Assembly (NCBI GenBank): GCA_964478135.1
Contig: CAYZGQ010000001.1
Coordinates: 3,365-67,364 of the forward strand
Direction: 5' to 3'
Source of the DNA: an uncultured Candidatus Saccharibacteria bacterium
Lineage (GTDB): Bacteria; Patescibacteriota; UBA1384; GWA2-35-9; CAYZGQ01
DNA: 64,000 nt
How positions within the stretch are numbered: the first letter of the stretch is position 1; the number at the start of each line of letters is the position of its first letter. The translations under genes and the position numbers were made by a program. A model generated the notes under the pieces. It did no database searches. It was not told the origin of the DNA and worked only from the letters and a program-made list of their open reading frames with translations. Below, piece by piece: positions 27,309-49,557 of this stretch.

Positions 27309-27334
27309 TCATTCGATTCGGGTCTTGACGGATC

Positions 27335-27371
27335 GGTCAAACTAAGTCACAATTTTTGTGATATGTGATCT
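27335..27371 (+). promoter_or_regulatory. operator-like inverted repeat upstream of the 1816-aa gene
   Basis: gTCACAAtttTTGTGAtatgtgatc gives perfect 6-bp inverted arms with a 3-nt spacer. A further GTGAT copy follows. It lies between a TTGACg -35-like hexamer and the aaggagaaaggagg SD. Confidence 0.35.
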
Positions 27372-27445
27372 ATGCAGGTGCGCATATTTAAGGAGAAAGG
27401 AGGATAACTACGTCCTCTCAATTAAGTCGCAATCCACTGGCCCAT

Positions 27446-30400
27446 TTGATCCCGCTGGCACAAGCAGGCCAGCTTTTTGGCTATTCAGCCGGTCATATGA
27501 ACTATTTAGCCCGGTCAGGGAAAATAATCGCTTTGAAACTCGGGGGTCAGTGGTACACGACTCGGGCGGCTGTTTCAGCCTACCAGGCCGGTCAACCCCA
27601 ACCGGAAAACCCGACCGGATTTATGTCTTTAGCCCAAGCGGCCAAGCAGTATGGCTATAGCGCCGGACATCTCAACCTTTTAGCCCGAGAAGGTAAGCTT
27701 GAAGCGGTGAAACTTGGGCGAAACTGGTACACGACCGAGCGCGCTATCGACCAGTACCGACAAGGCGTGCGTGAGATAGAATTAGTGCCAGATAGTCCTG
27801 ACCCGGCGCTCCAGATATCCCAGCCAGAAAATATTAATGTTAAAGTCAGGCCAGTAGCCAGTTACCAGGGATTTGGCATAACCGAAACCGATGATGACGC
27901 GCCAGGTCCGACCGGGGGATTTAGGCTCAAGTCAGTTATGGTCAGCCGTGGTTTTAAGCTCGGGTTGATCACACTTATAGTGTCTGGGCTGGCTTTTGGA
28001 CTGGGACGACTGGTTCAAGGCTGGCGCACGGGTGAGTTGAATGGACTGGGGCCATCTGGCATCGCGGCTTATTTGTTTGGTGGAGAGTTGGCCCAAGGAG
28101 ATCGTCTGGGCTCGGGTTTTCTCGGCAGTATCACACGAGAGCGAGCTCAATCCGATACGCCTGGGGTCAGACCCGAGGCGAGCCCTAGTCCGGACACTGT
28201 GGTCAATAACACGACAGTCAACAACTATAACCAGACCGTTAACAACGACAATCGTCAGGTGACAAACATCAGTACAACCAAAACTGCTAAAGATATTGTT
28301 GGAGAGTTATCCGACCCGCAGGTGAGTGATGACATCACGATTAACTCGAGCAAGGCTGGTTCGTTTAGTCCAAGCGGTAACACTACTGCCTTGACGGTCA
28401 AGCAAAGTTCAGCCAGTCCCTCGGAAACCCCGATCGTTAAGATTCAAAACGCGTCTGGGGCTAACCTTGTCACAGTTGATTTTGAAGGCAATTTAGGTCT
28501 GGCTGGTGGATCTAGATTGGAAATAGGCGGTCAGCAAATAGGAATTGCCAATCTAGCGGATGGATCTTCTATCGCGTCTCTTTCCGGTAGTCAAACTCTG
28601 ACTAATAAAACTTTGAGCGCGGGCGTTATCTACCAAGGATCGGCGATTAGCCCGAGCTACGGCGGGACCGGTCTAACATCAGCTCCCAGCAACGGCCAAC
28701 TCTTGATCGGCAATGGCTCGGGTTATACTCTGGCGGCTCTAACGGCTGGGACGGCAATTAATGTGACCAACGGTTCTGGTTCAATTACGATCGCTAATTC
28801 AGGTGTTACCTCGCTATCTGCCGGAACCGGCATCGCTGTTAGCGGTTCGTCGGGCGCGGTTACACTGACCAATTCGGGCGTGACCGCTCTGACCGGCACA
28901 ACCAACCAGGTCAGCCTGTCTGGTTCAACCGGTTCGATCACCATCTCAACGCCCCAAAACATTCATACCGGCGCCAGTCCAACCTTTTCAAGGCTCAATT
29001 TATCCGAGGCGTCCAATCAGTTGGTTCTTCAGTCAAATAGTGTTACAGGCAGTCTGACCTGGACGCCGGTCACATCCAATAAAACGATCACTCTGCCTAA
29101 TCTCACCGGAACCGCTTTTTTGATTGATGGAGGCCAGACGATCAGCTCTGCTGTCTGGAACGCTAGCGCTATCGGCCCGAGCTATGGCGGGACTGGTCAG
29201 ACGACCCTGGCCAAGGGTGATATTTTGTATGGCTCGGCGACTGATATTTGGTCGCGACTGGCTGTTGGCAGTATTGGTTATGTCCTCCAGGTCTCCCTAG
29301 ACGGCGTTCCAGAATGGGCGACTATTTCTTCCTTATCTGTTGGTAATGCTGACACGCTTGATTCGCTTGATTCAGCGGATTTTTTGCGCGCGACCGCCTC
29401 GGACACTTTTGAAGGAGTTAATTCAAGAACCCTGACCATTCAGTCTGATCTTTCCTCAGGCGCGAGGACGGTTGACCTTTTGACGATCAGCCAGGCGAAC
29501 GATCCAACCAATAACTTTACGACTGGCAATCTCCTAACAATTGCCCAACTCGACACCGGTTCGTCGGCCGATGCCTTAGAACTTAATCAGACTGGATCTG
29601 GTAAGGCTATTAACATTGTTTCAGGCGAGCTGGCGACAGCCGGCAACATCGTTCAAACCGGGGCAACCACGCTGTCAACCGGCACGGGCGCGGTCTCGCT
29701 CGGGGGTGACACGACCATCGCTACTGGAAAGAACTTGACTCTCGCGTCCGGGACAGGCACTTTTAGTCAGATTTTTAGTAATACGACCGGTACTGGAGCA
29801 AACTGGAATATCACTAACTCTGGTTCTTCTGGGACTAACACTGTTGGCGGGATAGGATTAGTGTTGGCTGGAACCGCCAACACGACTGGTTCGAATGTGA
29901 TTAATGCTATTAATTTTTCCAATGTCCCTCCGGCGACCAATAATTCTTATTACGCCCTGAATGTCGGAACCGGCTTTACTGATATTGTACGCTACAATGG
30001 CGCCCAGTTGATCTCTGGCTCGGGTGTCATTCAATCGGCCGCGCTTTCTGGTAACTACACTGGTGTTACTGGAGTTGGGATTTTATCCACCGGCACCTGG
30101 AATGCAGACACAATCATCTTTGCCAAGGGCGGCACGGGCTTAACAGCCACGCCCAGCAATGGCCAACTCTTGATCGGCAATGGCTCGGGTTACACTCTGG
30201 CCGGCTTAACCGGCACTACCAATCAGATCAATGTCGCTAGCGGGGCCGGTTCGATCACCCTCTCAACTCCCCAAAACATCCATACCGCCGCCAGTCCAAC
30301 CTTTGCCGGTTTGACTTTGTCCGACTTGACCCCTGGTTCTTTGGTCTTTGCCGGCGCCGGCGGGGTGATCAGCCAGGACAACGCCAAGTTCTTCTGGGAT

Positions 30401-32896
30401 CAGACAAATACTCGATTGGGTCTCGGGACAAGTTCGCCACTTTTTCCGATTCATGTTGTTAGATCGGGCGGTGGCGGGACGTTGAATTTTGACACTTACG
30501 CCGGTTCTGGACTGGGCAACAGCGCCATTCAAGGTCGGCGGGCGGCCGGAACTTTGGCCAGCCCGACAGCCACTCTGTCGGATATGACTCTGTTCGATCT
30601 GCTTGGGTCTGGCTACGACGGTTCAGCTTTCACCGGACAGATCGCTTCGATACGCATGCAAGCCAATCAGAATTTTAGCCCGACCAGTCAGGGCACCAGG
30701 ATTGTCTTTTTGACCACGGCCAATGATTCGACGACCGCGACTGAACGGCTGCGGATCAAACACAATGGCGATGTGGCAATCGGCAACGGCTCGACCGATC
30801 AGATATTATTTGGTTCGACCGGCTCGGCGGTCTTCAACGAACAGGGCAATGATGCCGATTTTCGGGTCGAGGGCGACACCGACGCCAATCTATTGTTCAC
30901 CGACGCTTCGGCCGATGTCTTGGGTGTCGGCACCGCGACCTTCGAAGCCAACACCCGCAAGATGGAGGTGAGATACACCGATACCGCGACCTCCGGAGGC
31001 ACCTTTTCAACGATTAGATTGCTTTCGGACATCAATGCTCCTTCTAACTCCACGGCATCCCATTTTGGTCTAGGAACGACTTTAAGAACCGCGAGCGGCA
31101 ACGCTTCCAACTACACCGACTCCACGACAGGTATTAAGGCGATGAACTTTGTCGTCCAGCACCGAGGCACAGGCACGGTTACTAGAATGACAGGCTTGGG
31201 CGGCAATGTCACCAACAGCTCAAGCGGTACGATTACGACTGCCGAGAGCATCGTGGCTGGGGTTGACCTGACCTCAACCGGTCCGATTACTACTTGGAAC
31301 GCCCTGCGGGTCTTCGCGCCCTCTATCACTGGCTCTGGGGTGCTGACTAACGCTCGCGGGCTTTACATCAGTAACATCACAGGGGCCTCCACGCAGAATC
31401 TAGCTATCCTGACAGAAGGGGGCGGAGTAGTCTTTAATGAAAACGGCACGGACAGCGATTTCCGGGTCGAGGGCGACACCGATGCCAATCTATTGTTCAC
31501 CGACGCTTCGGCTGATCGGGTTGGTATAGGGACAAACACCCCTTCGCTCAAACTTCACGTGGTGGACAACTCTTCAACTTCGGCTATTTTCCAGCGCAAC
31601 AGCACTGCCACCGGTTCGAGTGTTGGCTCAACGGTTTTTTTGGATAATTTGGACACCACGACCAACAATGGAGCTCGTTTGATTTTTAGAACCAACGATA
31701 CTGGCGGCGCAACCAGGCAAGCGGCTGGAATAGGCTCGCTCGTAACCGCCCGGGGTGCTAGCAGTGTGACTGGCGATCTGGTATTCCTGACCAACAACAA
31801 CTCAACCGGCGTTTCCGAGGTTGCTCGGTTAACCGGAGCGGGCGCGCTTGGCATTGGTGAGTCGCCGGCGGCCAATATGAAGCTTGATGTCGCTGGCCGG
31901 GTTCAGATTAATCTGGCCGGAACCCAAACCTCGGTTGCCTTGTGCGGTAGTCACCCGGCTGGCGGCGGGGCCTCGGTTTCCGATGTCGAGATTGTTGACT
32001 GCACCGGCACGCCGGCGGCTGACTATGCCGAGATCTATCCGGTTTCAAACGATGTTGAATACACTGATTTAGTGGCTATCGGACCGGATTCGGTTAAAAC
32101 CACCGATCAAAACTCGATTCAAAGGCTAGTCAAAGCTACGATCGCCAATCAAGCCAACACTTTAGGAGTCGTTGTTGACAACTACGGCGATTTCTCCTCG
32201 GTCGGTCACAACATTAAAGGTTCTGATAATCCCAAACCGGTCGCGCTTTCAGGCCGGGTGAGAGTGAAAGTTTCCGGCCAGTCGGGCGCGATAGCGCCCG
32301 GCGATTATCTGACCGCCTCGTCCAAACCCGGTCGGGCGATGAAGGCGACCTCAAGCGCCAAGATAGTTGGAGTGGCTTTGGGATCATTTAGCGGCGACGA
32401 GGGGACGGTAATGATGTTTGTCAGCAATTTCTGGTATAATCCGTCTTCGGGCGAGAGTATTCAGGGTACCCAAACTGCATCCTACCAGGCGCTCGAAGTT
32501 GCCGGCCTTTTGCGAACGAATCTTTTGGAGGTTGCCGGGCCAGCCGAGTTCAAAGGTAGTTTAGTTGTCTGGGGTGAAACAACCTTTAAGGCACCGGTTG
32601 TGGTTCAAAAGACGCTGACTGCTAAAGAAAAGATCGTGTCCAAAGGTGACCTTGAGCTCAAGGGCAATCTTGTTCTAAACCCCGACATTAAAGGGTCAGC
32701 CTTGCCAGTGACTAAGGGCGCGACCAGCCTTGAGGTCGTGTTTAGCAAGCCCCAAGCTGACACAAGCTACTTGGCTTTCGTCACGCCATCCCAGCCGATC
32801 GGTTTTGGCGTTACCAAACAATCTGACAAAATGATCGTTACCTTTGAGGCCGAGGCGCCGGAAGGATTAATCCTGGATTGGCTGATAGTCAGATGA
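27446..32896 (+). CDS. giant (1816 aa) membrane protein: two N-terminal excisionase-type HTH modules, one TM helix, long S/T/G-rich repetitive extracytoplasmic region
   Basis: Two tandem roughly 45-aa units (LAQAGQLFGYSAGHMNYLARSGKIIALKLGGQWYTT and LAQAAKQYGYSAGHLNLLAREGKLEAVKLGRNWYTT) match the HTH_17/excisionase pattern. A TM helix follows (FKLGLITLIVSGLAFGL). There are near-identical internal DNA repeats. The start codon is TTG as given by the ORF track, with no ATG and no SD in frame upstream, so the start is uncertain. Confidence 0.7.
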   Translation: MIPLAQAGQLFGYSAGHMNYLARSGKIIALKLGGQWYTTRAAVSAYQAGQPQPENPTGFMSLAQAAKQYGYSAGHLNLLAREGKLEAVKLGRNWYTTERAIDQYRQGVREIELVPDSPDPALQISQPENINVKVRPVASYQGFGITETDDDAPGPTGGFRLKSVMVSRGFKLGLITLIVSGLAFGLGRLVQGWRTGELNGLGPSGIAAYLFGGELAQGDRLGSGFLGSITRERAQSDTPGVRPEASPSPDTVVNNTTVNNYNQTVNNDNRQVTNISTTKTAKDIVGELSDPQVSDDITINSSKAGSFSPSGNTTALTVKQSSASPSETPIVKIQNASGANLVTVDFEGNLGLAGGSRLEIGGQQIGIANLADGSSIASLSGSQTLTNKTLSAGVIYQGSAISPSYGGTGLTSAPSNGQLLIGNGSGYTLAALTAGTAINVTNGSGSITIANSGVTSLSAGTGIAVSGSSGAVTLTNSGVTALTGTTNQVSLSGSTGSITISTPQNIHTGASPTFSRLNLSEASNQLVLQSNSVTGSLTWTPVTSNKTITLPNLTGTAFLIDGGQTISSAVWNASAIGPSYGGTGQTTLAKGDILYGSATDIWSRLAVGSIGYVLQVSLDGVPEWATISSLSVGNADTLDSLDSADFLRATASDTFEGVNSRTLTIQSDLSSGARTVDLLTISQANDPTNNFTTGNLLTIAQLDTGSSADALELNQTGSGKAINIVSGELATAGNIVQTGATTLSTGTGAVSLGGDTTIATGKNLTLASGTGTFSQIFSNTTGTGANWNITNSGSSGTNTVGGIGLVLAGTANTTGSNVINAINFSNVPPATNNSYYALNVGTGFTDIVRYNGAQLISGSGVIQSAALSGNYTGVTGVGILSTGTWNADTIIFAKGGTGLTATPSNGQLLIGNGSGYTLAGLTGTTNQINVASGAGSITLSTPQNIHTAASPTFAGLTLSDLTPGSLVFAGAGGVISQDNAKFFWDQTNTRLGLGTSSPLFPIHVVRSGGGGTLNFDTYAGSGLGNSAIQGRRAAGTLASPTATLSDMTLFDLLGSGYDGSAFTGQIASIRMQANQNFSPTSQGTRIVFLTTANDSTTATERLRIKHNGDVAIGNGSTDQILFGSTGSAVFNEQGNDADFRVEGDTDANLLFTDASADVLGVGTATFEANTRKMEVRYTDTATSGGTFSTIRLLSDINAPSNSTASHFGLGTTLRTASGNASNYTDSTTGIKAMNFVVQHRGTGTVTRMTGLGGNVTNSSSGTITTAESIVAGVDLTSTGPITTWNALRVFAPSITGSGVLTNARGLYISNITGASTQNLAILTEGGGVVFNENGTDSDFRVEGDTDANLLFTDASADRVGIGTNTPSLKLHVVDNSSTSAIFQRNSTATGSSVGSTVFLDNLDTTTNNGARLIFRTNDTGGATRQAAGIGSLVTARGASSVTGDLVFLTNNNSTGVSEVARLTGAGALGIGESPAANMKLDVAGRVQINLAGTQTSVALCGSHPAGGGASVSDVEIVDCTGTPAADYAEIYPVSNDVEYTDLVAIGPDSVKTTDQNSIQRLVKATIANQANTLGVVVDNYGDFSSVGHNIKGSDNPKPVALSGRVRVKVSGQSGAIAPGDYLTASSKPGRAMKATSSAKIVGVALGSFSGDEGTVMMFVSNFWYNPSSGESIQGTQTASYQALEVAGLLRTNLLEVAGPAEFKGSLVVWGETTFKAPVVVQKTLTAKEKIVSKGDLELKGNLVLNPDIKGSALPVTKGATSLEVVFSKPQADTSYLAFVTPSQPIGFGVTKQSDKMIVTFEAEAPEGLILDWLIVR

Positions 32897-32949
32897 ACCG
32901 TCTTTAATAAGTTAATAGACTAACTAAAAAAGGGGAGAAAGGAGATTGT

Positions 32950-33408
32950 ATGAAGTCCAAAACAGTTGTTATCGCGTTGGTGGTGATAGCGATCGTGTCC
33001 ACAGCCGCCTATTACTTTGGCGTGGTTATTCAAACACGAGCCCAAAAGCCGACCGCCCAATCTGTGTCTCGTAGTTACGAGGCGGTCTTTCTAACTAACG
33101 GCCAGGTTTATTTTGGCAAAGTGGCCAAAAGAGACCGGGACGAGATCGTGGTCAGAGACATTTATTACTTGAGAGTTGAGCAACAACTTCAGCCCGCTCC
33201 AGAGAATCAGACGGACCAGCAACCTAAAATAGCTTTAGTTAAGCTGGGTGATGAAATCCACGGCCCTCAAGACATTATGAGGATCAATACCCAACATGTT
33301 CTTTTCACAGAGAAGCTAAAAGAAAACGGTCAGGTAGTCCAGACAATTCTGCGTCACAAGCAAGGCGCGACCAGCCAGTCTTCGGCTCAACAATCTCCGG
33401 TCGAGTGA
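32950..33408 (+). CDS. small membrane-anchored hypothetical protein
   Basis: An N-terminal TM helix (VVIALVVIAIVSTAAYYFGVV) followed by a soluble domain. SD-like gaaaggagattgtATG. Confidence 0.45.
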   Translation: MKSKTVVIALVVIAIVSTAAYYFGVVIQTRAQKPTAQSVSRSYEAVFLTNGQVYFGKVAKRDRDEIVVRDIYYLRVEQQLQPAPENQTDQQPKIALVKLGDEIHGPQDIMRINTQHVLFTEKLKENGQVVQTILRHKQGATSQSSAQQSPVE

Positions 33409-33447
33409 TGGACTGACTTGACCAGATCGTGGTAGTATATAAAAATC

Positions 33448-34581
33448 ATGACTAAACGTCTCATCGTTGCGGGCGCTCTAATTTTGGCACTTTTGATTGG
33501 CGGAGCCGGCGGAGCGGCCTTTGTTTTGATCAGTGGTATTTCGAGTGTTCCGTCAGGCGCTATTGGGTCGGCCAAAAGTGATGCCAGCCGGGTTGAGAAA
33601 GTGGTTGTCGAGCAGTCATCGGGCGTGATAGACAGTGTTAAGAAAGTTTCTTCATCGGTTGTGGCGATCACTGTTAAGGGACAAGTGATTGATTTCTTTT
33701 TTGGACCAGTTTCTACCAGTTCGGCCGGCACTGGTTTTATCGTTACTGCCGATGGGTTAATTATCACTAATAAACATGTTGTTGCGGACGATAAGTCGGA
33801 ATACACGGTTTTCTTGCCAGACGGACGAAATTTTTCGGCCAAGGTGGTTGACCGCGACCCGCTCCAGGATTTGGCCTTTATTAAGATCGAGTCGAACGGT
33901 TTGCCGGTGGTTGAGTTGGGAGATTCTGACCGATTACAGGTAGGCGAGCAGGTGATTGCGATCGGCAACGCCTTGGGCGAGTTTCAAAATACAGTAACAG
34001 TTGGAGTGATTTCAGCCAAGAATCGTCAGATTACGGCATCAAACGGGGGTCAGGCCGAACCACTATCCGGCCTTTTACAAACCGATGCGGCCATCAACTC
34101 GGGCAACTCCGGCGGCCCGCTGGTTAATTTACGCGGTCAAGTGATCGGGATTAACACCGCTACCGCGACCAAGGGCGCCGCCGAAGGAATTGGCTTTGCC
34201 ATACCGACTAACACTGTTAAGCCTTCTTTAACCAGGATTACTAAACTCGGCCGAATTGCTCGGCCAATGCTTGGAGTTAGGTTTGCCAACATCACAAAAG
34301 AGTTGGCTGACCTGGAAAACTTGCCGGTTACTCAAGGCGCTTTGCTCGTGTCAGATGTCCAGGGTCGCCAACAAGCGGTTGTGGCCGGCGGACCGGCTGA
34401 CAAAGCCGGCCTTAAAAACGGTGACATTATTAGCCACATTAATGGTGATAAGATTGATCAGAGTAACTCTTTGCCCCAATTGATTGATCAGTATAACCCG
34501 GGGGACACGGTTGAGCTGACCGTGATCCGAGACCAAAAGACGCTCAAGATCAAAGTTCGACTCGAGGAGCTCAAGGTTTAG
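33448..34581 (+). CDS. htrA: HtrA/DegP-family serine protease with PDZ domain
   Basis: Catalytic triad context: His (TNKHVV), Asp, and Ser in GNSGGPLVN. C-terminal PDZ. N-terminal TM anchor. Confidence 0.85.
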   Translation: MTKRLIVAGALILALLIGGAGGAAFVLISGISSVPSGAIGSAKSDASRVEKVVVEQSSGVIDSVKKVSSSVVAITVKGQVIDFFFGPVSTSSAGTGFIVTADGLIITNKHVVADDKSEYTVFLPDGRNFSAKVVDRDPLQDLAFIKIESNGLPVVELGDSDRLQVGEQVIAIGNALGEFQNTVTVGVISAKNRQITASNGGQAEPLSGLLQTDAAINSGNSGGPLVNLRGQVIGINTATATKGAAEGIGFAIPTNTVKPSLTRITKLGRIARPMLGVRFANITKELADLENLPVTQGALLVSDVQGRQQAVVAGGPADKAGLKNGDIISHINGDKIDQSNSLPQLIDQYNPGDTVELTVIRDQKTLKIKVRLEELKV

Positions 34582-34597
34582 GCCGGCCATTTGGGTT

Positions 34598-35275
34598 CTA
34601 GCTGGCTGGCGAGGGGCTTGGGCTAGCGGCTGATTGGCCAGTTTGACGGGCGAACACAATGTAACGTTTGACGAGCGTGCCCGGAGGCCAAGAGGTTTGG
34701 AGAGTTATGGTTTTGTCTTTCGGATCTTTGGGCGTTGGGTCTAGAACCGAGAAGTCGTCAGAGGCGACCACCTTCTTGCCAAAGACCTCGTATTGGTAGG
34801 CGACATTTTTGTAATAGACGATGAACCGATCGCCTTTGTCGAGTTTGTCGATACTTTTGAAGATTTCTTTAAGTTCTGGTTTACCCGGGAAGTTTTTAAA
34901 GTAGCTCGAGTGACCGAAGATGTACATATTTCCCAGTTGGTCCGGTTTCTGGCTACCTTTTAGATGTGCGACACCGAGCTGGGAGGTGATTTTTTGATAG
35001 ACCGGTTCGTTAGCCCCGTCAACATCCGCGATAATTGGAACCCGGATGCTGATTTTTTCGATCTCAAGACCAAATTCTTTGATCTCGACTGGTTCTGGCA
35101 GGGAACTTTGATTAAGCCCTGAAGGAGAGGCAGAGGGTTGAACGATTGATACGTTCAAGCCTGACTTTACCAAAGCAAGCGTTCCGGCAACAACCATAGC
35201 GCTTGCTAGTCCAATACCAAGAATAACTAGCTTTTTTTGAGTAGTCACTTGTGGCAAGACAGATTGTGGGTTCAC
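34598..35275 (-). CDS. sortase-fold protein (class E-like) with Ser at the catalytic Cys position
   Basis: N-terminal TM anchor. Catalytic His context (NMYIFGHSSYF). TLQTSWPPGTLVKRYIVFA aligns with the sortase TLxTC...R active-site strand, but it is encoded as acc-tct-tgg (Ser), which I verified by reverse-complementing 34650-34700. The GTG start overlaps the TGA stop of the upstream LPKTG gene. Confidence 0.65.
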   Translation of the reverse strand: MNPQSVLPQVTTQKKLVILGIGLASAMVVAGTLALVKSGLNVSIVQPSASPSGLNQSSLPEPVEIKEFGLEIEKISIRVPIIADVDGANEPVYQKITSQLGVAHLKGSQKPDQLGNMYIFGHSSYFKNFPGKPELKEIFKSIDKLDKGDRFIVYYKNVAYQYEVFGKKVVASDDFSVLDPTPKDPKDKTITLQTSWPPGTLVKRYIVFARQTGQSAASPSPSPAS

Positions 35276-38200
35276 GCGAGCCGGCGTCGAAGGGTTACCG
35301 CGACCGATCCAGCGGCAAGAGCGGCCAGTCCGATCAAGGCCAGTAGGTTGAGCGCGAGCGTGTTGGCCCCGGTTTTCGGCAGCTCAACAACCTGCGCCGA
35401 AACCTGATCGGTGTTAATTGACTCGTTGCCAGTTGTATCGAGGGAGCGCAGGGTGTAGTAGTATGTCCCTTTGGCGGTCAGGCTGTCATTATAACTCGTG
35501 TCTGCCTTGACGGTCGTCTTAATTTTATCGCCTAGCTTTCCAGATTCACTCGAGCGGTAAATGTTAATCTTGTCAAAGTCAGAGTCGGTTGGATTTTTCC
35601 AAGTTAAACTGATCTTACCAGTGCCGGCAGTCGCTTTGACTTCGCTTGGAGCGGCCGGCGGGGCGCTGTCAGCGTTGGCCGCCAGGCCAAAGACGGTTAA
35701 GTGGGAAACCAAACAACTAACTTCGTTTTTAGTGGTGTCAACGGTGCAGTTTTCCTTAGACAGTGAACCATCGGTCTCGTTGAATGAGACGATCTGGATA
35801 TCAGCTTCTTTGACCCCGGCCGGAATATCGGATTCTTTATAGGGGAAGGTGACGGTCAAGGGACTGTTGGGAGAAGTAATGTTAGAACCATTAGAGTCGA
35901 TCGCCGTGATATTATAAGCCTTTCCAAAGACAGAGGCACCTTCTTGGGCAGGCATTTCTGCTGTGGCGCCAACATTAAGCGTGACATTAGCGTCATCATT
36001 GTTTTTATCGAGTGCATCTGCGGGCACTTGGATGTTCATACCATCGCTTAAGGAGATTGCCGTAGCCGAACCCGAATTGCCAGTTCTTGAAGCGTCAGCT
36101 GGCAAAACGTTGCTTTGGGTAGTCAAACTAAAATCTTGGGTGAGATTGGTCGTTTGACCCTTGGTGTTAACCAGTTTTTCACCTGGTAGGATTATGACAT
36201 CTTTTTGGTTATCAGCATCTTTGGCGACATCAAGGTGCCAGACAGTATCTTTGGTGGCATTCATTGAGTATTTGCCATTGGAATCAGTCCGGACTTGGTT
36301 GACAGCGCCGTCGTCGGAATAGGCGCTGACAAGGGCATTGTTGACTGTTTGAGCGCTGGAATCATTAACTGTGCCTTCAAACTTAAAGTCGGCTTTGCGT
36401 AACTTAAAGTCAACCCCAGTTTTAGTTTCTTGATTGCCCACGCTAACGATTTGTTCAGCCGGTGGTAGCCAGCCATTTTTATTCAGCACTTCGGGCGCCA
36501 TAAAAACTCGGATGTTTTGGGTTTCACTGGAAGTGACATCGATTGAGTAGCTACCATTCGTATCAGTTTGGCCACTGAATTCGAAGAAGTCAGGCACAGG
36601 ACCTTTAGTTGCGTTGCGGTTATCGTCGTCTAGGCCGTTGTCCACTTTAACTTTCGCTCCCACGACCGCGTTACCATCGGGATCGGTGACTTTACCTTGG
36701 ATTTTGCTGTCAAGGGCTTTGAGTGTTACTTTAACCTCTGCCGTTTGGCCGGCCGTCAGGCTGACTTTGTCTTTGGGGGGTACCATGGCAAAGCCTGAAC
36801 CTGGTTCGATAAAGACACCGACACGGTAGGGGCTTTGCCCGGCAACAACACTAATGTTGTTAACAGAGGCGGCTCCGCCATGACCGGCGAAATCACCCAT
36901 GACATTGACACCTTTGTCAGAAATAGCAAAGGCGTGGGCAAAGACGCCGGAAATGGCACTGCCGTCAGATTTCACTAACTTAACGGCAATGTTAGCATCG
37001 GTAGGAACCAGCTTGATATCAATTGATTTGACCTCGTTTTTAGCAAGTTTGACCTTGCTAAATCCTTCGGGCATAAAGCCGTTCATTGGCATCATTGGGT
37101 TTAATGTGTACTCATTGTCACCGGGAACTTTGATATTAGCGCTCCCACGCTGGATTGGTTTACCCAGAAAGCCGATCGTATCACTATTAACTTCCATAAA
37201 GCCAAAGCTGTCAGAGACGACAGCTTTGGTGTCAGAACGGGTAATCCTGGCCTTGATGGTGGCATCGGCGTTAAGTGCCTCGAAGGTAGCTGTTCCACCG
37301 GCTTCAACGAACTGTGGCCCGCCTTTGATCACCTTGGAACTGCCAGCCTGTTGCTCTTGATCCTTTTGACCACCTTCAGGTCCAAAGTTCTCTGACATCA
37401 CCATCACGCCGTATTTGCCCGTGCCGACCACAGGGATCGTGCCGGTTGCTTCGGTCCCAGTCAGCTTAAGAATAGTAAAGCCGAATTCACCGCCTCCACC
37501 GACGCCCATCTTAAAGACATTGGCATTCATGTCGGCGGAGCCGTTTTTAACCACGACTTTGATTGCCTTTTCTTTTTTTACCAGAGTCAGGATACCGAGG
37601 TTTTTGGTTTCGCCGGCTTTAACCGCGATTGGCTCAATGACAGGCGCTGCGAACTGGGCGGCGTTGGGATTTTGGAAGTTCGGTGGCGAAAAGATGTCGA
37701 AATTATAGCTTTTTCCTCCGGCTACTTTCACGTTGAAGTTGACCGAGGAGGCACCCGGGGTAATCTGGAGGGGCGCGCCAAAGCCAAAGTCATTACCGGC
37801 CCGGATACCAAGACCGGTGCCTTGAGCTAGGGCGGATCCATCAGGCGTGGTAATTGTACCGGTAACCGCGGCGTCGACTTTTACGAAGTTATTAATGTTA
37901 ACGGTGACTGTTTCCACTGAATCGTCGTCTTTAAAGCTAGCCTGAATTGGCGGACCGCTCATCACGAAACTGCCGGCCCCATCGCTCGGGGCATGGATAT
38001 TCCATCTACCACCCGAGAGTTTGACGCTGTAGTTGCCGCTCCCGTCGGTTTTAGTTTGGGCAAAACCACCCGCTTCTTTAAAGAAGTTTAAGCTAGTAGT
38101 GATTACAGCTTCACCGGTCGCGGTGGTTGCTTTACCGGTTAAAGTTTTGGTCGCAGATTTAAATTTAATGGTTTTGCCAGTCAATTGGCTGCCGGTGTAG

Positions 38201-38598
38201 GTACCAAGATCTGTGAACGGGGGAGAGATTAATCCAGTGGTTGAGCCGTCAAACGGTGGGAAAAGATCGGCCACGAGCTTGTCGCCGCTTTGGGTGTTAT
38301 TAGCGAAGTCTTGGATAGTTGCCAGGCCGTTAGCGTCTGAATTGCTAAATAAGGAATATTTAAAATCAATCGGATGGACGTTAACTCCGGCGTTTTTGAC
38401 CGGCGCGCCATCGGCATCCTGGATGGTAATTACAATAATGGTTTTAGCCGTGGGTGGTGGTTGGGCGAGTGAGGCGCCAGAGTAGGCGAGGACTAGGCCC
38501 GCGATAGTGAAGACGCTTGTAAGGCCGCGCCAGTACAGGCGGAAAGCACCCGCCTGGGTCGTTCCTGATTGTAACATTATCCCTCCTTTTGAGCTCAA
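35272..38598 (-). CDS. LPKTG-anchored giant surface protein (1108 aa) with Ig-like/carboxypeptidase-regulatory-like domains and a C-terminal FN3
   Basis: N-terminal signal/TM. A C-terminal sorting signal (LPKTG, hydrophobic stretch, then RRRLA). FN3 signature (TYYYTLRSLDTTGNES). Strong SD (aaaaggaggg) before the ATG. Confidence 0.8.
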   Translation of the reverse strand: MSSKGGIMLQSGTTQAGAFRLYWRGLTSVFTIAGLVLAYSGASLAQPPPTAKTIIVITIQDADGAPVKNAGVNVHPIDFKYSLFSNSDANGLATIQDFANNTQSGDKLVADLFPPFDGSTTGLISPPFTDLGTYTGSQLTGKTIKFKSATKTLTGKATTATGEAVITTSLNFFKEAGGFAQTKTDGSGNYSVKLSGGRWNIHAPSDGAGSFVMSGPPIQASFKDDDSVETVTVNINNFVKVDAAVTGTITTPDGSALAQGTGLGIRAGNDFGFGAPLQITPGASSVNFNVKVAGGKSYNFDIFSPPNFQNPNAAQFAAPVIEPIAVKAGETKNLGILTLVKKEKAIKVVVKNGSADMNANVFKMGVGGGGEFGFTILKLTGTEATGTIPVVGTGKYGVMVMSENFGPEGGQKDQEQQAGSSKVIKGGPQFVEAGGTATFEALNADATIKARITRSDTKAVVSDSFGFMEVNSDTIGFLGKPIQRGSANIKVPGDNEYTLNPMMPMNGFMPEGFSKVKLAKNEVKSIDIKLVPTDANIAVKLVKSDGSAISGVFAHAFAISDKGVNVMGDFAGHGGAASVNNISVVAGQSPYRVGVFIEPGSGFAMVPPKDKVSLTAGQTAEVKVTLKALDSKIQGKVTDPDGNAVVGAKVKVDNGLDDDNRNATKGPVPDFFEFSGQTDTNGSYSIDVTSSETQNIRVFMAPEVLNKNGWLPPAEQIVSVGNQETKTGVDFKLRKADFKFEGTVNDSSAQTVNNALVSAYSDDGAVNQVRTDSNGKYSMNATKDTVWHLDVAKDADNQKDVIILPGEKLVNTKGQTTNLTQDFSLTTQSNVLPADASRTGNSGSATAISLSDGMNIQVPADALDKNNDDANVTLNVGATAEMPAQEGASVFGKAYNITAIDSNGSNITSPNSPLTVTFPYKESDIPAGVKEADIQIVSFNETDGSLSKENCTVDTTKNEVSCLVSHLTVFGLAANADSAPPAAPSEVKATAGTGKISLTWKNPTDSDFDKINIYRSSESGKLGDKIKTTVKADTSYNDSLTAKGTYYYTLRSLDTTGNESINTDQVSAQVVELPKTGANTLALNLLALIGLAALAAGSVAVTLRRRLA

Positions 38599-38619
38599 GA
38601 TATATTTAATTAATTTGTA

Positions 38620-38661
38620 ATTCTGTTTTTAAAATAACAAGATTTGGCAGATGTGTCAAGT
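38620..38661 (-). promoter_or_regulatory. candidate sigma70-like promoter for the LPKTG gene
   Basis: Read on the minus strand: TTGACA, a 17-nt spacer, then TATTTT, about 25 nt upstream of the SD. Confidence 0.35.
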
Positions 38662-38678
38662 TTCAGACTGTGGAAAGC

Positions 38679-39587
38679 TTAATTCTTTTTGGATTGTTGA
38701 GTTATTGATTCAAAGATCGGTTCAAGTTGACCATCTAAAATAGAGTTTATTCTGGAAAAACTTTTACCCGATCGATGGTCGGTCACCCTGTCCTGGGGGA
38801 AGTTGTAAGTTCTGATTTTTTCCGATCGATCACCCGAACCAACCATTTGTTTGCGAACTTTATCGGTCTTGGCGTGGATGCTGGCATCCTCGATTTTATT
38901 GAGCCGGGCGGCTAAAACCGCCAGTGCGCTTTGTCTGTTGGCCGTTTGAGAACGTTCGTCCTGTGAGGTCGCGACTAGGCCGGTTGGCCGGTGAACGATT
39001 CGGACCGCTGTCTCAACCTTATTAACATTTTGACCGCCGTGACCGCCGGCGCGAAAAAATGATATTTCAAGCTCGCTTGGTTTTAATTTAGCCGAGTCTT
39101 GTTTGACAACCGGCAAAACCGCGACCGTGGCGGCGGATGTGTGAATTCGGCCTCTCTTTTCCGTTACTGGTGTTCGCTGGACCCGGTGAACACCAGCCTC
39201 GGTTTTGAGGGAGTGATAGGGACTTGGGTTAGTTTCAAGTTGAGCCGATCCTTGGTTTTGTTTAACTTCTACTATGGCCGATTTAATCCCGCCTTGACTT
39301 GACGTTTGAATCTCAATCGGCCGCCAAATCCACGATCGGCGATGGCAAAAGTGCCGATACATTCTTAAAAGATCGGCCGCCCAAATTTCAGCCTCACCCC
39401 CGCCCACGCCGGCCCTGATTTCAAGAAAACAGTCATTGACTCGTTCTTCCTTTTGGCCCTTAAACTGACCGGTTTGAGCCTCGAGGCGTTTAATGTCCTC
39501 GCGAGCCATCTGCCCGATCGCAGGATCAGGATTTGAAGCGAGCGCCCGCGCCTGATTGAGCTGTTTGACAATTGTTTGATAGTCCAT
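38679..39587 (-). CDS. prfA: peptide chain release factor 1
   Basis: GGQ motif ([16 protein letters not shown]). Domain-2 tripeptide PVT within [26 protein letters not shown], which is the RF1 type (PxT) rather than RF2 (SPF). No frameshift site. Confidence 0.85.
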
Positions 39588-39791
39588 AGTTTTGGGCTGG
39601 TTTGAGTTTGTTTCGCCGGCAATTGGTTTGAAACTGACCCAGTCTTGCCAACCGAGCTAAGATAATGTTACACTCATCAACTGGATTGGTAAAATGTAAT
39701 ACTAAAATATAGACTCTCATACTAGACGAGAGAGATTGATTTTTTCTCTCTTTATCTTTAATTGTAATTTACTTTTGTCTTGCCGATCAAA

Positions 39792-40028
39792 ATGAAAAAA
39801 AAGATCCATCCAACCTATCACCAGGCGAGCGTGAGGTGCGCCTGCGGCGCTAACTACACCGTTGGCTCAACCAAGACTAACATGAGTATTGAGGTTTGTA
39901 GCGCCTGTCATCCACTTTTTACAGGCGATGCTAAGTTTTTGGACACAGCCGGGAGGATTGATCGCTTTAAGGCGAGACTTAAACAGTTGTCCGAGGCCGA
40001 ACCTAAGACTGCAAAAAAGTTAAAGTAA
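39792..40028 (+). CDS. rpmE: ribosomal protein bL31 (Zn-binding type A)
   Basis: MKKKIHPTYH...CACG...CSACHPLFTG carries the CxxC...CxxC zinc ribbon of L31. Confidence 0.85.
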   Translation: MKKKIHPTYHQASVRCACGANYTVGSTKTNMSIEVCSACHPLFTGDAKFLDTAGRIDRFKARLKQLSEAEPKTAKKLK

Positions 40029-40068
40029 CTAAAGCCTTTTTGCTAATTTCAACCCAATAACTGGATAT

Positions 40069-40959
40069 ATGGCTACCAAGATTATTAAAGTAAAAGCGGT
40101 CAAGTCAGCCCAAACAACTACCGGTCGCCAGAAGACCGAAAGCCATCTTATGGGTAAGACGAGCAAGGCCAAGGAGCCTTCAAAGATAGCCCTGCCAAGT
40201 GTTGAGAAACTATTTGAACTGGGCGCCCATTTTGGTCATCAGCGCTACCGATCTCATCCTGATTTTCAGGAATACGTCTGGCAAGTGCGCGATGGAGTTA
40301 TGATTTTGGATTTAAGCCAAACGCTTGACCGGCTCAAACTGGCGCTTGATTTTTTGGACAAGCAGAGTCGACTTGGCAAAAAAATACTAATTGTTGGGAC
40401 CAAGAGAATCAGTCGTGATTTGGTCGAGCGCTTGGGTAAAGAAACAAACACAGCTTGGGTCTCAAACCGGTGGTTGTCTGGTACTTTGACTAACTTTGCC
40501 ACTCTGATTGGACAAATCAAAAAACTCAATCGTTTAAGCGAGTTGATCGGCTCGAAAGAGTTTGAGCAGATGACTAAAAAGGAACGTTTAATCTGGGAGC
40601 GAAAACTGGCCAGGCTCCACGACAACTTTGACGGTTTGAGCAGTCTTGAGGCAAGACCGGATATATTAGTGGTGATTGACGGACACGCTCACCGGATTAG
40701 CACAGATGAAGCCAAACGTTTGGGGATCACCACGGTCGTGTTCGCCGACAGCGACACTGATCCTAGCCTGTGCGATTACTTGGTCCCGATTAACGATGAT
40801 TCACGATCAACGATCGAGCTGGTGATTAATTTAATCGGTCAAGCGATCGGCGGTGCCAGAACATCTGATCAGACAACAAAGCCGGACAGTCTAGTAAAAA
40901 GTGACAGAGCCAGAGCGCGCGGTTTAAGTAAAATCAATAATGTCCAAGACGTTAGTTGA
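40069..40959 (+). CDS. rpsB: ribosomal protein uS2
   Basis: LFELGAHFGHQ, VILDL-type and conserved S2 core. The N-terminal roughly 27-aa extension is uncertain, and an alternative start near 40150 is possible. Confidence 0.85.
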   Translation: MATKIIKVKAVKSAQTTTGRQKTESHLMGKTSKAKEPSKIALPSVEKLFELGAHFGHQRYRSHPDFQEYVWQVRDGVMILDLSQTLDRLKLALDFLDKQSRLGKKILIVGTKRISRDLVERLGKETNTAWVSNRWLSGTLTNFATLIGQIKKLNRLSELIGSKEFEQMTKKERLIWERKLARLHDNFDGLSSLEARPDILVVIDGHAHRISTDEAKRLGITTVVFADSDTDPSLCDYLVPINDDSRSTIELVINLIGQAIGGARTSDQTTKPDSLVKSDRARARGLSKINNVQDVS

Positions 40960-41404
40960 GACGATCAAAAAGCTCCGGGATGAAACAGGGGCCGGACTAA
41001 TGGATGTTAAAAAGGCGCTCACTCAAGCTGGTTCGGATCTCAACAAGGCGAGAGTGATTCTGCGTCAGACAAGCGCTGTCAAAGCGGTTCAAAAGAGTGA
41101 ACGCTCGACCCAAGCCGGCTTGATCGAATCATACGTCCACGCCGGCAAAATCGGGGTGCTGGTTGAGCTGGGTTGTCAGACCGATTTTGTGGCGCGCACG
41201 AGTGAGTTCAAGGCGCTAGCCCATGAACTAGCCCTGCAAGTGGCCTCAATGGCCCCTAAAAACGTGACCGAGCTGTTTAGCCAAAACTACATCAAAGACG
41301 AGTCAACCACGATCAAGCAGATTGTGAATAACGCGATCGCGAAACTGGGCGAAAATATTCAAATTAAGCGTTTTGTAAGGTTTGAACTTGGTCAGGGCGA
41401 CTGA
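40940..41404 (+). CDS. tsf: elongation factor Ts (short form)
   Basis: N-terminal UBA-like LRxxTGAGxMDCKKAL signature (IKKLRDETGAGLMDVKKAL). Follows rpsB as in the conserved rpsB-tsf pair. Confidence 0.85.
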   Translation: MSKTLVETIKKLRDETGAGLMDVKKALTQAGSDLNKARVILRQTSAVKAVQKSERSTQAGLIESYVHAGKIGVLVELGCQTDFVARTSEFKALAHELALQVASMAPKNVTELFSQNYIKDESTTIKQIVNNAIAKLGENIQIKRFVRFELGQGD

Positions 41405-41575
41405 CCATTCTTCAAACTGTAATGTCTCAACCGATTAGTTGCTCTTGACAAGGCTGGTTTATGTCTTGACAATGTAAGTAAGACACAAACCGAAGGAGGG
41501 GAAATTAATTCAAGACAGAATGAGACTTGGGGGTTTAGTCTAGGAGAGTCTCTTGCGAAGCCCTTTATATGGCTA

Positions 41576-44500
41576 GTGCTGGGTGTTTTAGCCCTGCTCG
41601 GTCTGGTTTTAGTCAGTCCTTCGGCCGTCCAGGCCGGTGCAATCACCGGTTTGTCGGTTACAGTCAGTGACACGAGCGTCCAAGGGACGGCTGACTGGAC
41701 AATTGCCCTGACTCCAGAACAGTCAGTCCCAGCCAAGTCAAATGGCGGTCGGATTCACATGTGTGTCTATGGACCAGGCTCGATGAGTTTTCGGGATGGT
41801 TCTGTCGCGCTCGATTCGTCGGCTAGCACGAGCGGTTTGTCAATCTATGAACGGTTGGGAAATTGTATCACCCTTCAGTCAAACAGCGAGATCGCAGGAG
41901 GAACGGTTATCACTGCCAAACTGACAGGGGTTAGAAACCCAGACAAAGCCGGACGGTATGTTGGTCACATCTACAGCTCGACCTACGGCACCGCCCGAGA
42001 CGGCACCTCTCGCTGGGGCGGGCTCTACAATAGTTCTTTTACCATCGGCGATTTGACCAAGAACACTATTTCAGGTACGGTCACAGATGCCAATGGCGCA
42101 CCGGTCCGGTTTGCCTCCGTCTCTGTTTGGGGTAGCGGCGGCGGCGCTTGGGGCTACAGCTACACCGATCAAAATGGCCAGTACGCGATCGGCAGTCTAA
42201 CCACTGGCTCCTACAACTTTAGCGTCTACGGTCCCTACAACGAAGACGGTATCTTTTATTTTGCGCCTGATGTTTCGAGTATTTCAATTTCCGATACTTC
42301 GGCCACGACCAAAAACGCCAGCTTTTTAGCGACTCCCAAAACATTGCAAATTAAGGTTGAGGACGGCTCTGGTACAGCCATAACCGATGCCTATGTCTCG
42401 ATCTGGTCCAGAAACGGGAATGGTTGGGCTCAAACCAAAAACAACACCAACGGAGTCTACAAGATTAATGTTCCGAAAAACCGGACTTTTGGGTTTAGCG
42501 TTTATCCCCAAAATTGGCCTTCAACCTGGCAGTCATGCGGCAGTTATAACGAAGAAGTTACGACCGCCAACACCGATACGGCCGAGACTGTCAGTAAGAC
42601 GTTTAAGGTTTCCTCGCTCAACGCCACGGTCAAAGGTAAGATTGAGCGGTCTGACGATAGCACGCCCAAGCGCTGGTCAGTGAGCGTGAGTTTCCAGTCA
42701 AGCGGAGGTTGCTGGGCTTCAGCCGACTTTCCCGACGACACTGGTAATTTCAGCGCTAAAGTTGTCAGTGGCGAGACTATCACCGCGACTGGTTGGGTTT
42801 CGAGTGATCTCAACGAATCATTCCCAACGGTCAGTAACTTTTCGGTCCAAGCCAACCAAGAGCACAACCTGGGCGTAATCAAACTTAAAAAGCGTGATAA
42901 AAAGCTCGCTGTGACGGTTGTGGACAAAAATGGCGATCCGGTTAACAAGGCCAACGTCTACGCTTGGAAAACTGGCGGTTCGTATGAATATGCCAACGGC
43001 ACAACTGGCTCCGATGGCAATGCGGAACTCTTTTTGAGTCCAGGCAGCTGGAATGTTTCGGCCGGGCCAGAGTACCGCTGGAATGGCTCAAACAACGAAT
43101 ATGACTATGTCTCCAACTGGAAGTCTCAATTGATCAGCTTTTCCGAGTCAGACACGACTAAAACGATCAAGTTTATCTTCCAAAAGGTTACCTCAACGAT
43201 TAATGTCACCGTGACCGATGAGGCTGGGAGCGTCCTTAACCTATCGGGTAGTTTGTCGGCCAACGATGGTTCGCAAGAATGGTCAAATATCTGGTCCCAG
43301 CTCAATAGTGGCAAAGGCAAGCTTAGGGTTCCCCGAGGGACCTGGAGTGTTAACGCCAGTATTTGGGATGAGACCTATAGCTCACCAAATCCGGTTGACA
43401 TCACGATCGGTGATAATGAGACCAAAGAGATCAAGCCCAAGGCCTTGATCAATGATTCGACCATTTCCGGCAAAATCTACACAGAAGATGAAGATGGTAA
43501 CCGGACCCTGCTTAAAAACACTTGGCTTAGCATCTATGCTAACAAAAAAAATTCCTACTCTTCTTGGCGGTCAGCCTCGGTCAACCAAGAAGAAGGAACC
43601 TATTCGATCAAAGTTTCCTCGGGTGACTGGAGGCTCGGTTACTGGTTTTATAACAACAATTATATGTCAGGATACGGGAACGAAGTTGATGTATCGGTTA
43701 AATCAGGTGAAACTAAGACCCAAGATATTATTCTGCGCAAAGCTAACTACACCATCTCGGTCAAGGCGCTCGATCCAGACGGCAAGGCGCTGATGGGGGC
43801 TTGGATCACGGCTGACACGCGCAATCCTAAAGAGCGGACCGAAGCTGGTACTTGGTACTCAACCGGTACCTCAACCAATAATCAGGGAGAGGGGACGATT
43901 CAAGTGTCAGCCAACACTTACTGGATTAGTGGTTCGATGTGGTCAGGTTATATCAGTCCAGAGCGCCAAGAGGTTAAGGTCAATAAAGACAATCCAACTG
44001 CCAGTGTCACTCTCCAGTTCGGTCGGTCTGATGCGACTATATCTGGCACAGTCAAGCTCGATGACAAAGGGACTAAGTCGTTTGTTAATGCGGTCAGCGA
44101 GAAAGGCCGCTATGCCGAGACTAATTCAAGTAACGAAGGCCATTACATCCTCAACGTCTCGAAAGACGACACTTGGGTCGTCAAGGCAGTTAAAAAGGAT
44201 GGCGCAACTTTGTATCGATCAGACAAGAATCGAGTTGATCTCACTGGTAAGACCACGGGCATAGTCAATCTCGATTTGGTAAAAGAAACAATCAAGTTGC
44301 CGGAGGGGACGACCAGCACCTTTAATGCCAGCCAGTCAACTACCGTTAAGATTAAAAATGGCAATGTTGACGAAGTGATCATCACTGTTCCGACTGGCAC
44401 CCTGTCGAGCGATAATGAACAGATAACTGTAACGGCCGATGTGACCGAAGAGGTCACCGACACTTCAACTAGCGAGCCTGTTTTCGACTACGGTTATGAC

Positions 44501-46446: not shown

Positions 46447-46487
46447 CGTTAACTCGTTTTTTCTATTAGCTAGTTTCCACCAAAACA

Positions 46488-47045: not shown

Positions 47046-47095
47046 CAAACAGTTTTGTTTGACTAGAATTACAATTTATTATTTTTAATCAAACT

Positions 47096-49528: not shown

Positions 49529-49557
49529 ACTACTAACTAAATTTCCAAGGAGGTTCG

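Follow-up and report, generated by a model that had tools for sequence, protein, structure and literature searches.

A sortase-fold gene and its LPKTG neighbour

The window, the whole 64-kb stretch of DNA analysed here, encodes one sortase and two LPKTG proteins. The sortase ORF, 225 aa when counted from the GTG start in the ORF list, lies directly downstream of the gene for one of these LPKTG proteins and overlaps it by 4 nt. The features of the locus are as follows.

34598..35275, minus strand: sortase-fold gene with Ser at the nucleophile position (ORF, PF04203, AF2 and Foldseek)
35159..35242, minus strand: N-terminal membrane anchor, residues 12-39 (AF2 helix; KK motif followed by a hydrophobic stretch)
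34922..34924, minus strand: Tyr118, codon TAC, four residues before the catalytic His and partner of Gln193 (DNA read, covariation)
34910..34912, minus strand: His122, codon CAC, the catalytic His of FGHSS (DNA read, homologs)
34697..34699, minus strand: Gln193, codon CAA, two residues before the nucleophile, half of the Tyr/Gln pair
34691..34693, minus strand: Ser195, codon TCT, in the column of the catalytic Cys (TLQT-S-WPP; DNA read, alignments)
34664..34666, minus strand: Arg204, codon CGT, the catalytic Arg on the last strand (DNA read, homologs)
35272..35275, minus strand: GTGA overlap of the sortase GTG start and the substrate TGA stop (DNA read)
35272..38598, minus strand: 1108-aa secreted surface protein with CarboxypepD_reg/Ig-like repeats and an Fn3-like C-terminal module, the presumed substrate (ORF; PF13620, 69 bits; orthologs in the same position)
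35275..35382, minus strand: C-terminal sorting signal of LPKTG (35368..35382), hydrophobic segment and RRRLA (LPTTG or LPKTG in orthologs)
41576..45193, plus strand: paralogous second LPKTG surface protein, 1205 aa, a likely second substrate (paralogy, LPKTG)

By sequence and predicted fold, the 225-aa ORF is a sortase, as had been proposed in an initial sequence-only reading that recognized the sortase architecture and the membrane anchor. Residues 70-211 are recognized by the Pfam Sortase profile PF04203 (E 1.7e-21; 76.7 bits, cutoff 26.6), and the score with TIGR01076 (sortase_fam), 42.5 bits, also exceeds its cutoff of 39.35. In the AF2 model (pLDDT 83.8), residues 12-39 form an N-terminal helix, followed by the eight-stranded sortase beta-barrel, and the top 50 Foldseek matches in the PDB are sortases throughout, with E values of 6e-11 to 2e-9 and target-normalised TM scores of 0.55-0.80. 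In the public annotation the gene product, P0001 (199 aa), begins at Met27, which truncates the membrane helix. The helix therefore requires a start upstream of Met27, which is probably GTG1, TTG7 or GTG10.

The 1108-aa protein ends in VE-LPKTG, followed by 26 uncharged, mostly hydrophobic residues and then RRRLA. This three-part sorting signal is plain despite sub-cutoff scores with the LPXTG-anchor HMMs (PF00746, 11.7 bits with a cutoff of 20; TIGR01167, 11.4 with a cutoff of 15.9), and it is intact in every ortholog in the clade of the window gene. Both the sorting signal and the 4-nt overlap of the GTG start with the TGA stop had been read correctly from the sequence. In orthologous gene pairs, the substrate and sortase genes overlap by 20-41 nt. 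The presumed cognate substrates are the product of the overlapping upstream gene and the second LPKTG protein, whose gene lies 6 kb away. The cassette has HtrA as a conserved neighbour, and a further gene nearby shows matches to the PCRF and RF-1 domains of release factors and looks like RF2. An alternative genetic code is not indicated: codon 195 is an ordinary TCT, and a probable release-factor gene adjoins. Scans of the window against Rfam and for tRNAs gave no hits.

Serine in the column of the catalytic cysteine

The window sortase contains both the FGHSS motif and TLQTSWPPGTLVKRYIVFA. In a phmmer alignment, its TLQTSWPPG pairs with TLVTCTPYG of PDB 8gr6, and in the family alignments the column of Ser195 is occupied by Cys in 176 of 184 homologs. 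The catalytic Cys of the TLXTC motif is therefore replaced by Ser, while the catalytic His and Arg are kept: His122 is invariant (184/184 homologs), and Arg204 is Arg in 181/184. These alignments, together with the DNA read, uphold the earlier proposal of a Ser (TCT) in the Cys column with a retained FGHSS His and downstream Arg. The proposed TCT codon is real, but it lies at 34691..34693, about 15 nt from the site at about 34676 that had been given for it. Relocation of the nucleophile within the protein was considered and rejected: the window sortase has no Cys residue at all, nor do most Ser forms, and Cys117, which is present in a subset of Ser forms, is not conserved.

TCT is one base from TGT, and the sequence-only reading had allowed for a miscalled TGT. 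A sequencing or assembly error of this kind, or a recently decayed pseudogene, now has a negligible chance of being the explanation. Identical window DNA was assembled from two separate runs, ERR3478686 and ERR4904391, with 100% DNA identity over 3.6-6.0 kb; orthologs at 49-51% identity also encode Ser at this position, using TCC; more than 190 further Ser forms exist; and the ORF is intact, with every family-invariant residue retained. The two-run identity, the TCC orthologs and the hundreds of Ser relatives together establish that Ser195 is not a sequencing error.

The same reading had treated the Ser sortase as a singular oddity, which it is not. An unbiased HMMER scan found Ser at the nucleophile column in 7/184 members. 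After a search seeded with Ser forms, which partially selects for the TLQTS word, the count was 116/296 family members. In metagenomes, 84 loci carry Ser at this column, as read through an HMM-anchored alignment. Each of the six Ser codons occurs (TCT 22, TCC 21, TCA 16, TCG 9, AGC 4 and AGT 2), such that TCN-Ser, AGY-Ser and TGY-Cys are all found at one catalytic column. Apart from Ser, the column contains Cys and a single Asn; Ala, Gly and Thr are absent from it. The Ser forms share between 26% and 99% identity in pairwise comparison, and within this set the residues 118Y, 122H, 193Q, 194T, 195S, 197P and 204R each reach a conservation of 97% or more. This pattern indicates that the natural Ser forms are under long-term purifying selection.

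Serine at the nucleophile column coincides with a specific pair of residues. Tyr118 and Gln193 are present in 116/116 Ser proteins and in 82/84 Ser loci; Cys forms mostly have Phe/Met at these positions, and none of the 161 members lacking Tyr/Gln has Ser. The 118-193 pair ranks first of 14028 pairs by MI-APC, and is also the top pair within Cys forms alone. With Tyr118, Gln193, Ser195, His122, Thr194 and Arg204, the window protein shares the proposed Tyr-Gln-Ser signature with all 116 Ser forms. The Ser forms are also linked to their presumed substrates. At 47/84 Ser loci, as compared to about 8-16/80 for Cys forms, a same-strand gene for a protein with an LP[RKTV]TG sorting signal ends fewer than 300 nt before the sortase gene. 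One Ser form lies directly downstream of a murD-like cell-wall gene. Taken together, these sequences apparently represent a large, undescribed class of Ser sortases in ultra-small CPR bacteria, usually encoded beside the gene for the presumed substrate.

Relation to known sortases and repeated exchange of Cys and Ser

Folds that support either a Ser or a Cys nucleophile are known from other enzymes. In the PA clan, the chymotrypsin-like Ser proteases and the viral 3C Cys proteases share one fold, and Ser/Cys nucleophile exchange is reportedly the subject of Brenner's 1988 "tale of two serines". Ser-PBP DD-transpeptidases have a counterpart in the Cys L,D-transpeptidases, and transpeptidation through a Ser ester is established in PBPs. 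These clans differ from sortases in fold and family, and to our knowledge Ser/Cys nucleophile exchange has not been described for sortases.

The window protein shares the beta-barrel of the canonical Cys sortases (PF04203, MEROPS C60, classes A-F), which include Staphylococcus aureus SrtA and the SrtE proteins of T. fusca and S. coelicolor; Foldseek E values to SrtE and SrtA are about 6e-11. Also shared are the N-terminal membrane anchor, the His...T-L-x-T-[nucleophile]...Arg layout, and an LPXTG substrate with a hydrophobic segment and basic tail. The window protein differs in its Ser nucleophile, and in having Gln two residues before the nucleophile and Tyr four residues before the His, where canonical sortases have hydrophobic residues. 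None of the class-specific NCBIfam sortase models reaches its cutoff on the window protein. The best is that of class E, with which the sequence-only reading had aligned the protein, but class E membership is not supported, since NF033747 scores 51.2 bits against a cutoff of 160 (37-53 bits for relatives) and the sorting signals are LPKTG, LPTTG or LPRTG, with LPKTG adjacent in the window, rather than LAXTG. The nearest relatives, at 35-60% identity, are sortases of Berkelbacteria, Microgenomates and other Patescibacteria.

In the classification of Meheust et al. 2019 (PMC6744442), the window protein falls into the CPR/Patescibacteria sortase family fam000526. That study treats the family in terms of presence and absence, and mentions neither a Cys-to-Ser subclass nor the Tyr/Gln signature. 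A search of the literature for Ser sortases in nature, or for biochemical work on CPR sortases, yielded as relevant results only presence/absence surveys and the SrtA C184S mutant. This laboratory mutant of S. aureus SrtA, employed as a Cys-less scaffold (PMC4827206, PMC5578623), has the same single nucleophile substitution as the window protein. Natural Ser forms differ from it in carrying the Tyr118/Gln193 pair and in their history of purifying selection.

Several lines of evidence indicate that the exchange of Cys and Ser has occurred repeatedly. In neighbour-joining (NJ) trees built without the signature columns, which are approximate (about 180 columns), at least four Cys/Ser changes are required in 100/100 bootstraps, and in 0/100 bootstraps do all Ser forms fall in one clade with 25 or fewer Cys forms. 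The window gene falls in a clade with Berkelbacteria-like Cys forms (85% support) and not with the main Parcubacteria Ser clade, so that its likeness to that clade is convergent, reflecting a shared state rather than common descent. Within the window-gene clade, Ser forms are mixed with the Cys forms P0003 and P0043, whose loci have the same S2-L31-RF2-substrate-sortase-HtrA synteny as the window gene. Positional orthologs with this synteny have either Cys (TGC) or Ser, and span the states Phe/Met/Cys, Tyr/Gln/Cys and Tyr/Gln/Ser. On balance, although by a narrow judgement, it appears that CPR sortases have several times independently evolved a working Tyr-Gln-Ser-His-Arg site that anchors LPXTG proteins via an oxy-ester, with the window clade representing a transition in progress from Phe/Met/Cys through Tyr/Gln/Cys to Tyr/Gln/Ser.

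Proposed catalysis by the Ser form and its significance

The best reading of the window protein, and one that we consider likely, is that of an active Ser-nucleophile sortase. The enzyme would be a membrane-anchored, extracytoplasmic member of the CPR (Patescibacteria) family with Ser195 in place of Cys, presumably translated together with the LPKTG protein whose gene lies directly upstream, and probably serving the paralog at 41576..45193 as well. His122 would activate Ser195, with Tyr118 and Gln193 providing a polar setting where Cys forms have Phe-Met. Ser195 would then attack the Thr-Gly bond of LPKTG to form an oxy-ester acyl-enzyme, with Arg204 and Thr194 positioning the substrate and oxyanion. 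Resolution of the ester by the amine of a cell-wall precursor, the likely acceptor, would leave the protein anchored. Counting against an active Ser enzyme, S. aureus SrtA C184S is reported to be dramatically less active than its parent, with most activity lost (PMC4827206), and sortase active sites lack an acid of the classical Ser-activating kind.

An alternative model is that the Ser form is a pseudo-sortase that binds the sorting signal of its neighbour without cleaving it, acting as a dock, chaperone or retention factor, with the chemistry performed by a Cys sortase elsewhere or not at all. The near-inactivity of SrtA C184S is consistent with this model, as is the far more frequent cassette linkage of Ser forms. 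Since the Ser forms look like dedicated cassette sortases, there is room for a separate housekeeping Cys sortase, which could coexist with them; sortases are common in CPR genomes (PMC6744442). However, there is no second sortase in the window or at any of the 84 Ser loci, where flanks of at most 10 kb were covered, and the model leaves unexplained a column restricted to Ser or Cys, at least three independent switches, the use of six Ser codons, and the conservation of His122, Thr194 and Arg204 (at least 97%) across Ser forms that differ so widely in sequence. Nor does it account for toggling between Cys and Ser among positional orthologs with an unchanged cassette. Of these two alternatives, both of which the sequence-only reading had raised, the evidence favours the active enzyme; we regard a pseudo-sortase as unlikely. 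Less probable still is that the Ser form is an active hydrolase or processing protease that cuts the LPKTG signal, releasing or maturing the adjacent giant protein with no link to peptidoglycan. Oxy-ester intermediates are prone to hydrolysis, and a maturation protease would fit the dedicated one-substrate pairing and the presence of HtrA as a conserved neighbour. Against this, the whole anchoring signal (motif, membrane segment and basic tail) is conserved as in anchored proteins, one Ser form sits in a mur operon, the same cassette is occupied by Cys orthologs, and nothing points specifically to release.

Sortases are known from textbooks as cysteine transpeptidases; they serve as drug targets and are in wide use for protein ligation. 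The Cys of TLXTC is treated as family-defining. A large natural Ser class that is conserved, has arisen repeatedly, always includes one specific second-shell pair, and is genetically tied to LPXTG substrates would show that the sortase fold supports a second nucleophile, and would illustrate, in extant genes, how a catalytic site evolves along the codon paths between Cys and Ser. If an active Ser-nucleophile sortase is the correct reading, the class would provide a natural guide to making a Cys sortase thiol-independent and oxidation-resistant, and suggests mutations for engineered sortases, the SrtA equivalents being S116Y, I182Q and C184S. If the Ser forms are instead inactive, a widespread class of pseudo-enzymes devoted to single surface proteins would likewise be new. 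Thiol-directed sortase inhibitors and Cys-based annotation rules would overlook much of the cell-surface biology of CPR bacteria.

A sortase homolog with a serine codon at the nucleophile position

34598..35275, minus strand: sortase ORF, 225 aa, with a GTG start
34691..34693, minus strand: TCT codon of Ser195 in the nucleophile column, read from the DNA
35272..38598, minus strand: upstream surface protein, 1108 aa, the ORF directly before the sortase ORF

The window protein belongs to the sortase superfamily by fold and sequence, yet it lacks the Cys that defines the superfamily. It matches the Pfam Sortase model (PF04203) over residues 70-211 with 76.7 bits, where the cutoff is 26.6, and it scores above the cutoff of the general sortase model TIGR01076. 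An AlphaFold2 model (42 homologs, pLDDT 83.8) has an N-terminal helix at residues 12-39 and a beta-barrel, and every one of its best solved-structure matches is a sortase (T. fusca SrtE, several SrtA, SrtC and SrtD; E 6e-11 to 2e-9). The catalytic His and Arg are both retained, as His122 (in FGHSS) and Arg204, while phmmer aligns the window's TLQTSWPPG opposite TLVTCTPYG of PDB 8gr6, and there is no Cys anywhere in the window protein. An HMM built from the family found this single sortase in the 64-kb window. Together with the GTGA that is common to the GTG start of the sortase ORF and the TGA stop of the 1108-aa ORF, the Pfam match, the model and the codon confirm the sequence-only reading of a Ser-for-Cys sortase overlapping an LPKTG gene. 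That reading had the TCT codon right but placed it about 15 nt from its real site. It had also likened the protein to class E; the window protein falls below the cutoff of every class A-F or GN model, as do its Cys and Ser relatives, and the class E label is therefore mere resemblance.

The GTG is the most upstream start possible for the sortase ORF, and its use restores the membrane helix. The public gene call (P0001) is 199 aa long and starts at Met27, which cuts this helix in half; the call from another assembly (P0297) is 225 aa long and starts at the GTG overlapping the upstream stop.

The suggestion that the Ser codon is a single-base error did not survive comparison with other data. The window protein and its DNA were assembled independently from runs ERR3478686 and ERR4904391, with 100% identity to the window across 5970 nt for one assembly and 3617 nt for the other. 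Moreover, two orthologs with ~50% identity, P0002 and P0004, are in the equivalent position, where each overlaps the 3' end of the gene for a homologous ~1100-aa LPTTG protein, and they have Ser in the nucleophile column by a different codon, TCC. With identical DNA from two runs and Ser orthologs, the chance that Ser195 is a sequencing or assembly artefact is negligible.

Distribution and origin of the Ser forms

HMMER, run exhaustively over 1.84 billion cluster representatives, gave 2827 relatives. In a 184-member set, made up of the best 150 of these and the matches of the first search, the nucleophile column holds Cys in 176, Ser in seven and Asn in one. When an alignment of the seven Ser forms was searched against a 5.8-billion-protein set, 688 matches were obtained, and the best 120 of them were almost all Ser. 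In all, Ser forms make up 116 of the 296 collected members, with the motif LTLQTS[YW]PxGTALKR; they are named plainly "sortase" or "class E sortase" at source, and their hosts are Kerfeldbacteria, Doudnabacteria, Veblenbacteria and other Patescibacteria. Another 84 Ser loci came from JGI metagenome contigs, which were scanned with two search patterns, one of them without a Ser requirement.

Pairwise identity among Ser forms is 26-99% (median 50%), so that they differ at up to 74% of positions, and they keep Tyr118, His122, Gln193, Thr194, Ser195, Pro197 and Arg204 at 97% or more. All six Ser codons are used at the nucleophile position (TCT 22, TCC 21, TCA 16, TCG 9, AGC 4, AGT 2), the codon of the Cys orthologs is TGC or TGT, and Ala, Gly and Thr are absent from this column in all members. 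The presence of TGY-Cys, TCN-Ser and AGY-Ser in one column recalls the argument on serine protease origins that Brenner reportedly made in 1988. The member with Asn, P0140, has a Cys right after the catalytic His (LFGHCE), and could be an inactive copy or one whose nucleophile has moved. About one-quarter of main-clade Ser sortases (e.g., P0188, P0212 and P0243) carry Cys117, near the active-site strand and adjoining Tyr118 (NCYIFGHSS); position 117 is elsewhere V, P, A, M or T, and this lack of conservation makes a catalytic role for Cys117 unlikely.

With the three signature columns removed, neighbour-joining trees group the window protein with four others in a clade that has 85% bootstrap support. 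This clade mixes Ser forms (window, P0002, P0004) with Cys forms (P0003, P0043) and is surrounded by Berkelbacteria-like Cys sortases. Elsewhere in the tree are the main Ser clade of 112 sequences and a separate Ser sortase, P0154. By Fitch parsimony every one of the 100 replicates needs at least four switches between Cys and Ser, and none of them unites all Ser forms in a single clade with 25 or fewer Cys forms. The two Cys members of the window clade are positional orthologs, with the window's locus order of S2, L31, putative RF2, giant LPKTG protein, sortase and HtrA.

Residues 118 (four before the His) and 193 (two before the nucleophile) are the most strongly co-varying pair in the family, ranking first of 14028 by mutual information with APC correction, and likewise for Cys forms alone. 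The pair is Phe-Met in 114 members, Val-Ile in 17 and Tyr-Gln in 23, with others besides. Tyr-Gln is present in all 116 collected Ser forms and at 82 of the 84 Ser loci from metagenomes, the remaining two having Phe-Gln, and Ser does not occur in any of the 161 members that have a different pair. The window clade holds Phe/Met/Cys (P0043), Tyr/Gln/Cys (P0003) and Tyr/Gln/Ser (window, P0002, P0004) at positions 118, 193 and the nucleophile. The coexistence of these three states suggests that a polar Tyr-Gln pair beside the nucleophile may be a precondition for Ser.

Substrate genes and genomic surroundings

38679..39587, minus strand: release-factor ORF, 302 aa only, with PCRF and RF-1 domains
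41576..45193, plus strand: second LPKTG giant surface protein, a paralog of the 1108-aa protein with the same architecture
13204..19461, plus strand: giant ORF, 2085 aa, with seven purple-acid-phosphatase-N / Fn3-like repeats
27446..32896, plus strand: giant ORF, 1816 aa, with an N-terminal HTH_17 domain

The N-terminus of the 1108-aa protein resembles a signal peptide; the protein also contains CarboxypepD_reg repeats of Ig-like type and an Fn3-like module, and ends in LPKTG, 26 uncharged, mostly hydrophobic residues, and RRRLA. Its paralog, which sits across the RF2/L31/S2/Tsf block from it, has CarboxypepD_reg repeats, a C-terminal module that is GPS-like and Fn3-like, and the tail ...SILPKTG...RIVRIK. 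At 47 of 84 Ser loci, less than 300 nt separates the sortase gene from the end of an upstream, same-strand gene whose protein has a complete sorting signal, a count to be read with many of the remaining contigs being too short for a verdict; Doudnabacteria contig MFFA01000003.1 is one instance of the arrangement. LPRTG dominates beside Ser forms (46 signals), with some LPVTG, LPTTG and LPKTG, and appears to be the signature motif of the main-clade Ser sortases. Across locus L094 (8139..9950) and 47 other loci among L098-L177, the protein before a main-clade Ser sortase nearly always ends in LPRTG, a membrane segment and a basic tail. By comparison, only 16 of 80 Cys-form loci in the same family have an adjacent signal-like tail, ~8 of them convincing. 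Because adjacency is commoner at Ser than at Cys loci, the Ser forms look like dedicated cassette sortases. P0154 (locus L088, 336..2264) begins 1 nt after a murD-like gene for a Mur ligase ends, a neighbour that would tie it to cell-wall synthesis.

The match of the release-factor ORF begins at PCRF profile position 43. A different frame may encode its N-terminus, as in the classical prfB frameshift, or else the protein is perhaps truly this short. The release factor at ortholog locus L086 is also short (258 aa). The 2085-aa and 1816-aa ORFs lie in GC-richer stretches (0.55-0.57 vs ~0.49), and both lack a sorting signal. Exactly at 32228, within the 1816-aa ORF, two independent Logan assemblies (L003 and L097) stop, which suggests a repeat or strain-variable segment. 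No tRNA genes and no Rfam families above gathering score were found in the 64 kb scanned (1..64000).

Proposed catalysis by serine and its alternatives

The simplest reading, and a reasonably probable one, is an active sortase with Ser195 as its nucleophile, because the column takes only the two residues able to act as acyl-transfer nucleophiles, the remaining catalytic apparatus is preserved, the switch recurs on one specific background, and the genes remain fused to intact LPXTG substrates. In this scheme the base for Ser195 would be His122, Arg204 and Thr194 would keep the substrate and the oxyanion in place, and Ser195 would form an ester acyl-enzyme to be resolved by a cell-wall amine. 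Ser-PBPs carry out transpeptidation through Ser, and the proposed ester route parallels theirs. Counting against an active Ser enzyme, S. aureus SrtA C184S is nearly dead (PMC4827206), and a Cys sortase may be co-resident in the same genomes. A non-catalytic pseudo-sortase that acts in docking is unlikely, and a mainly hydrolytic Ser variant is a distinctly improbable outcome.

A full-text literature search, covering few subscription journals, found no description of natural Ser sortases. Sortases are already known from CPR bacteria as a gene family that over half of the genomes carry (PMC6744442). Judged from the sequences collected here, the window gene belongs to a large, apparently unrecognised class of putative Ser sortases.
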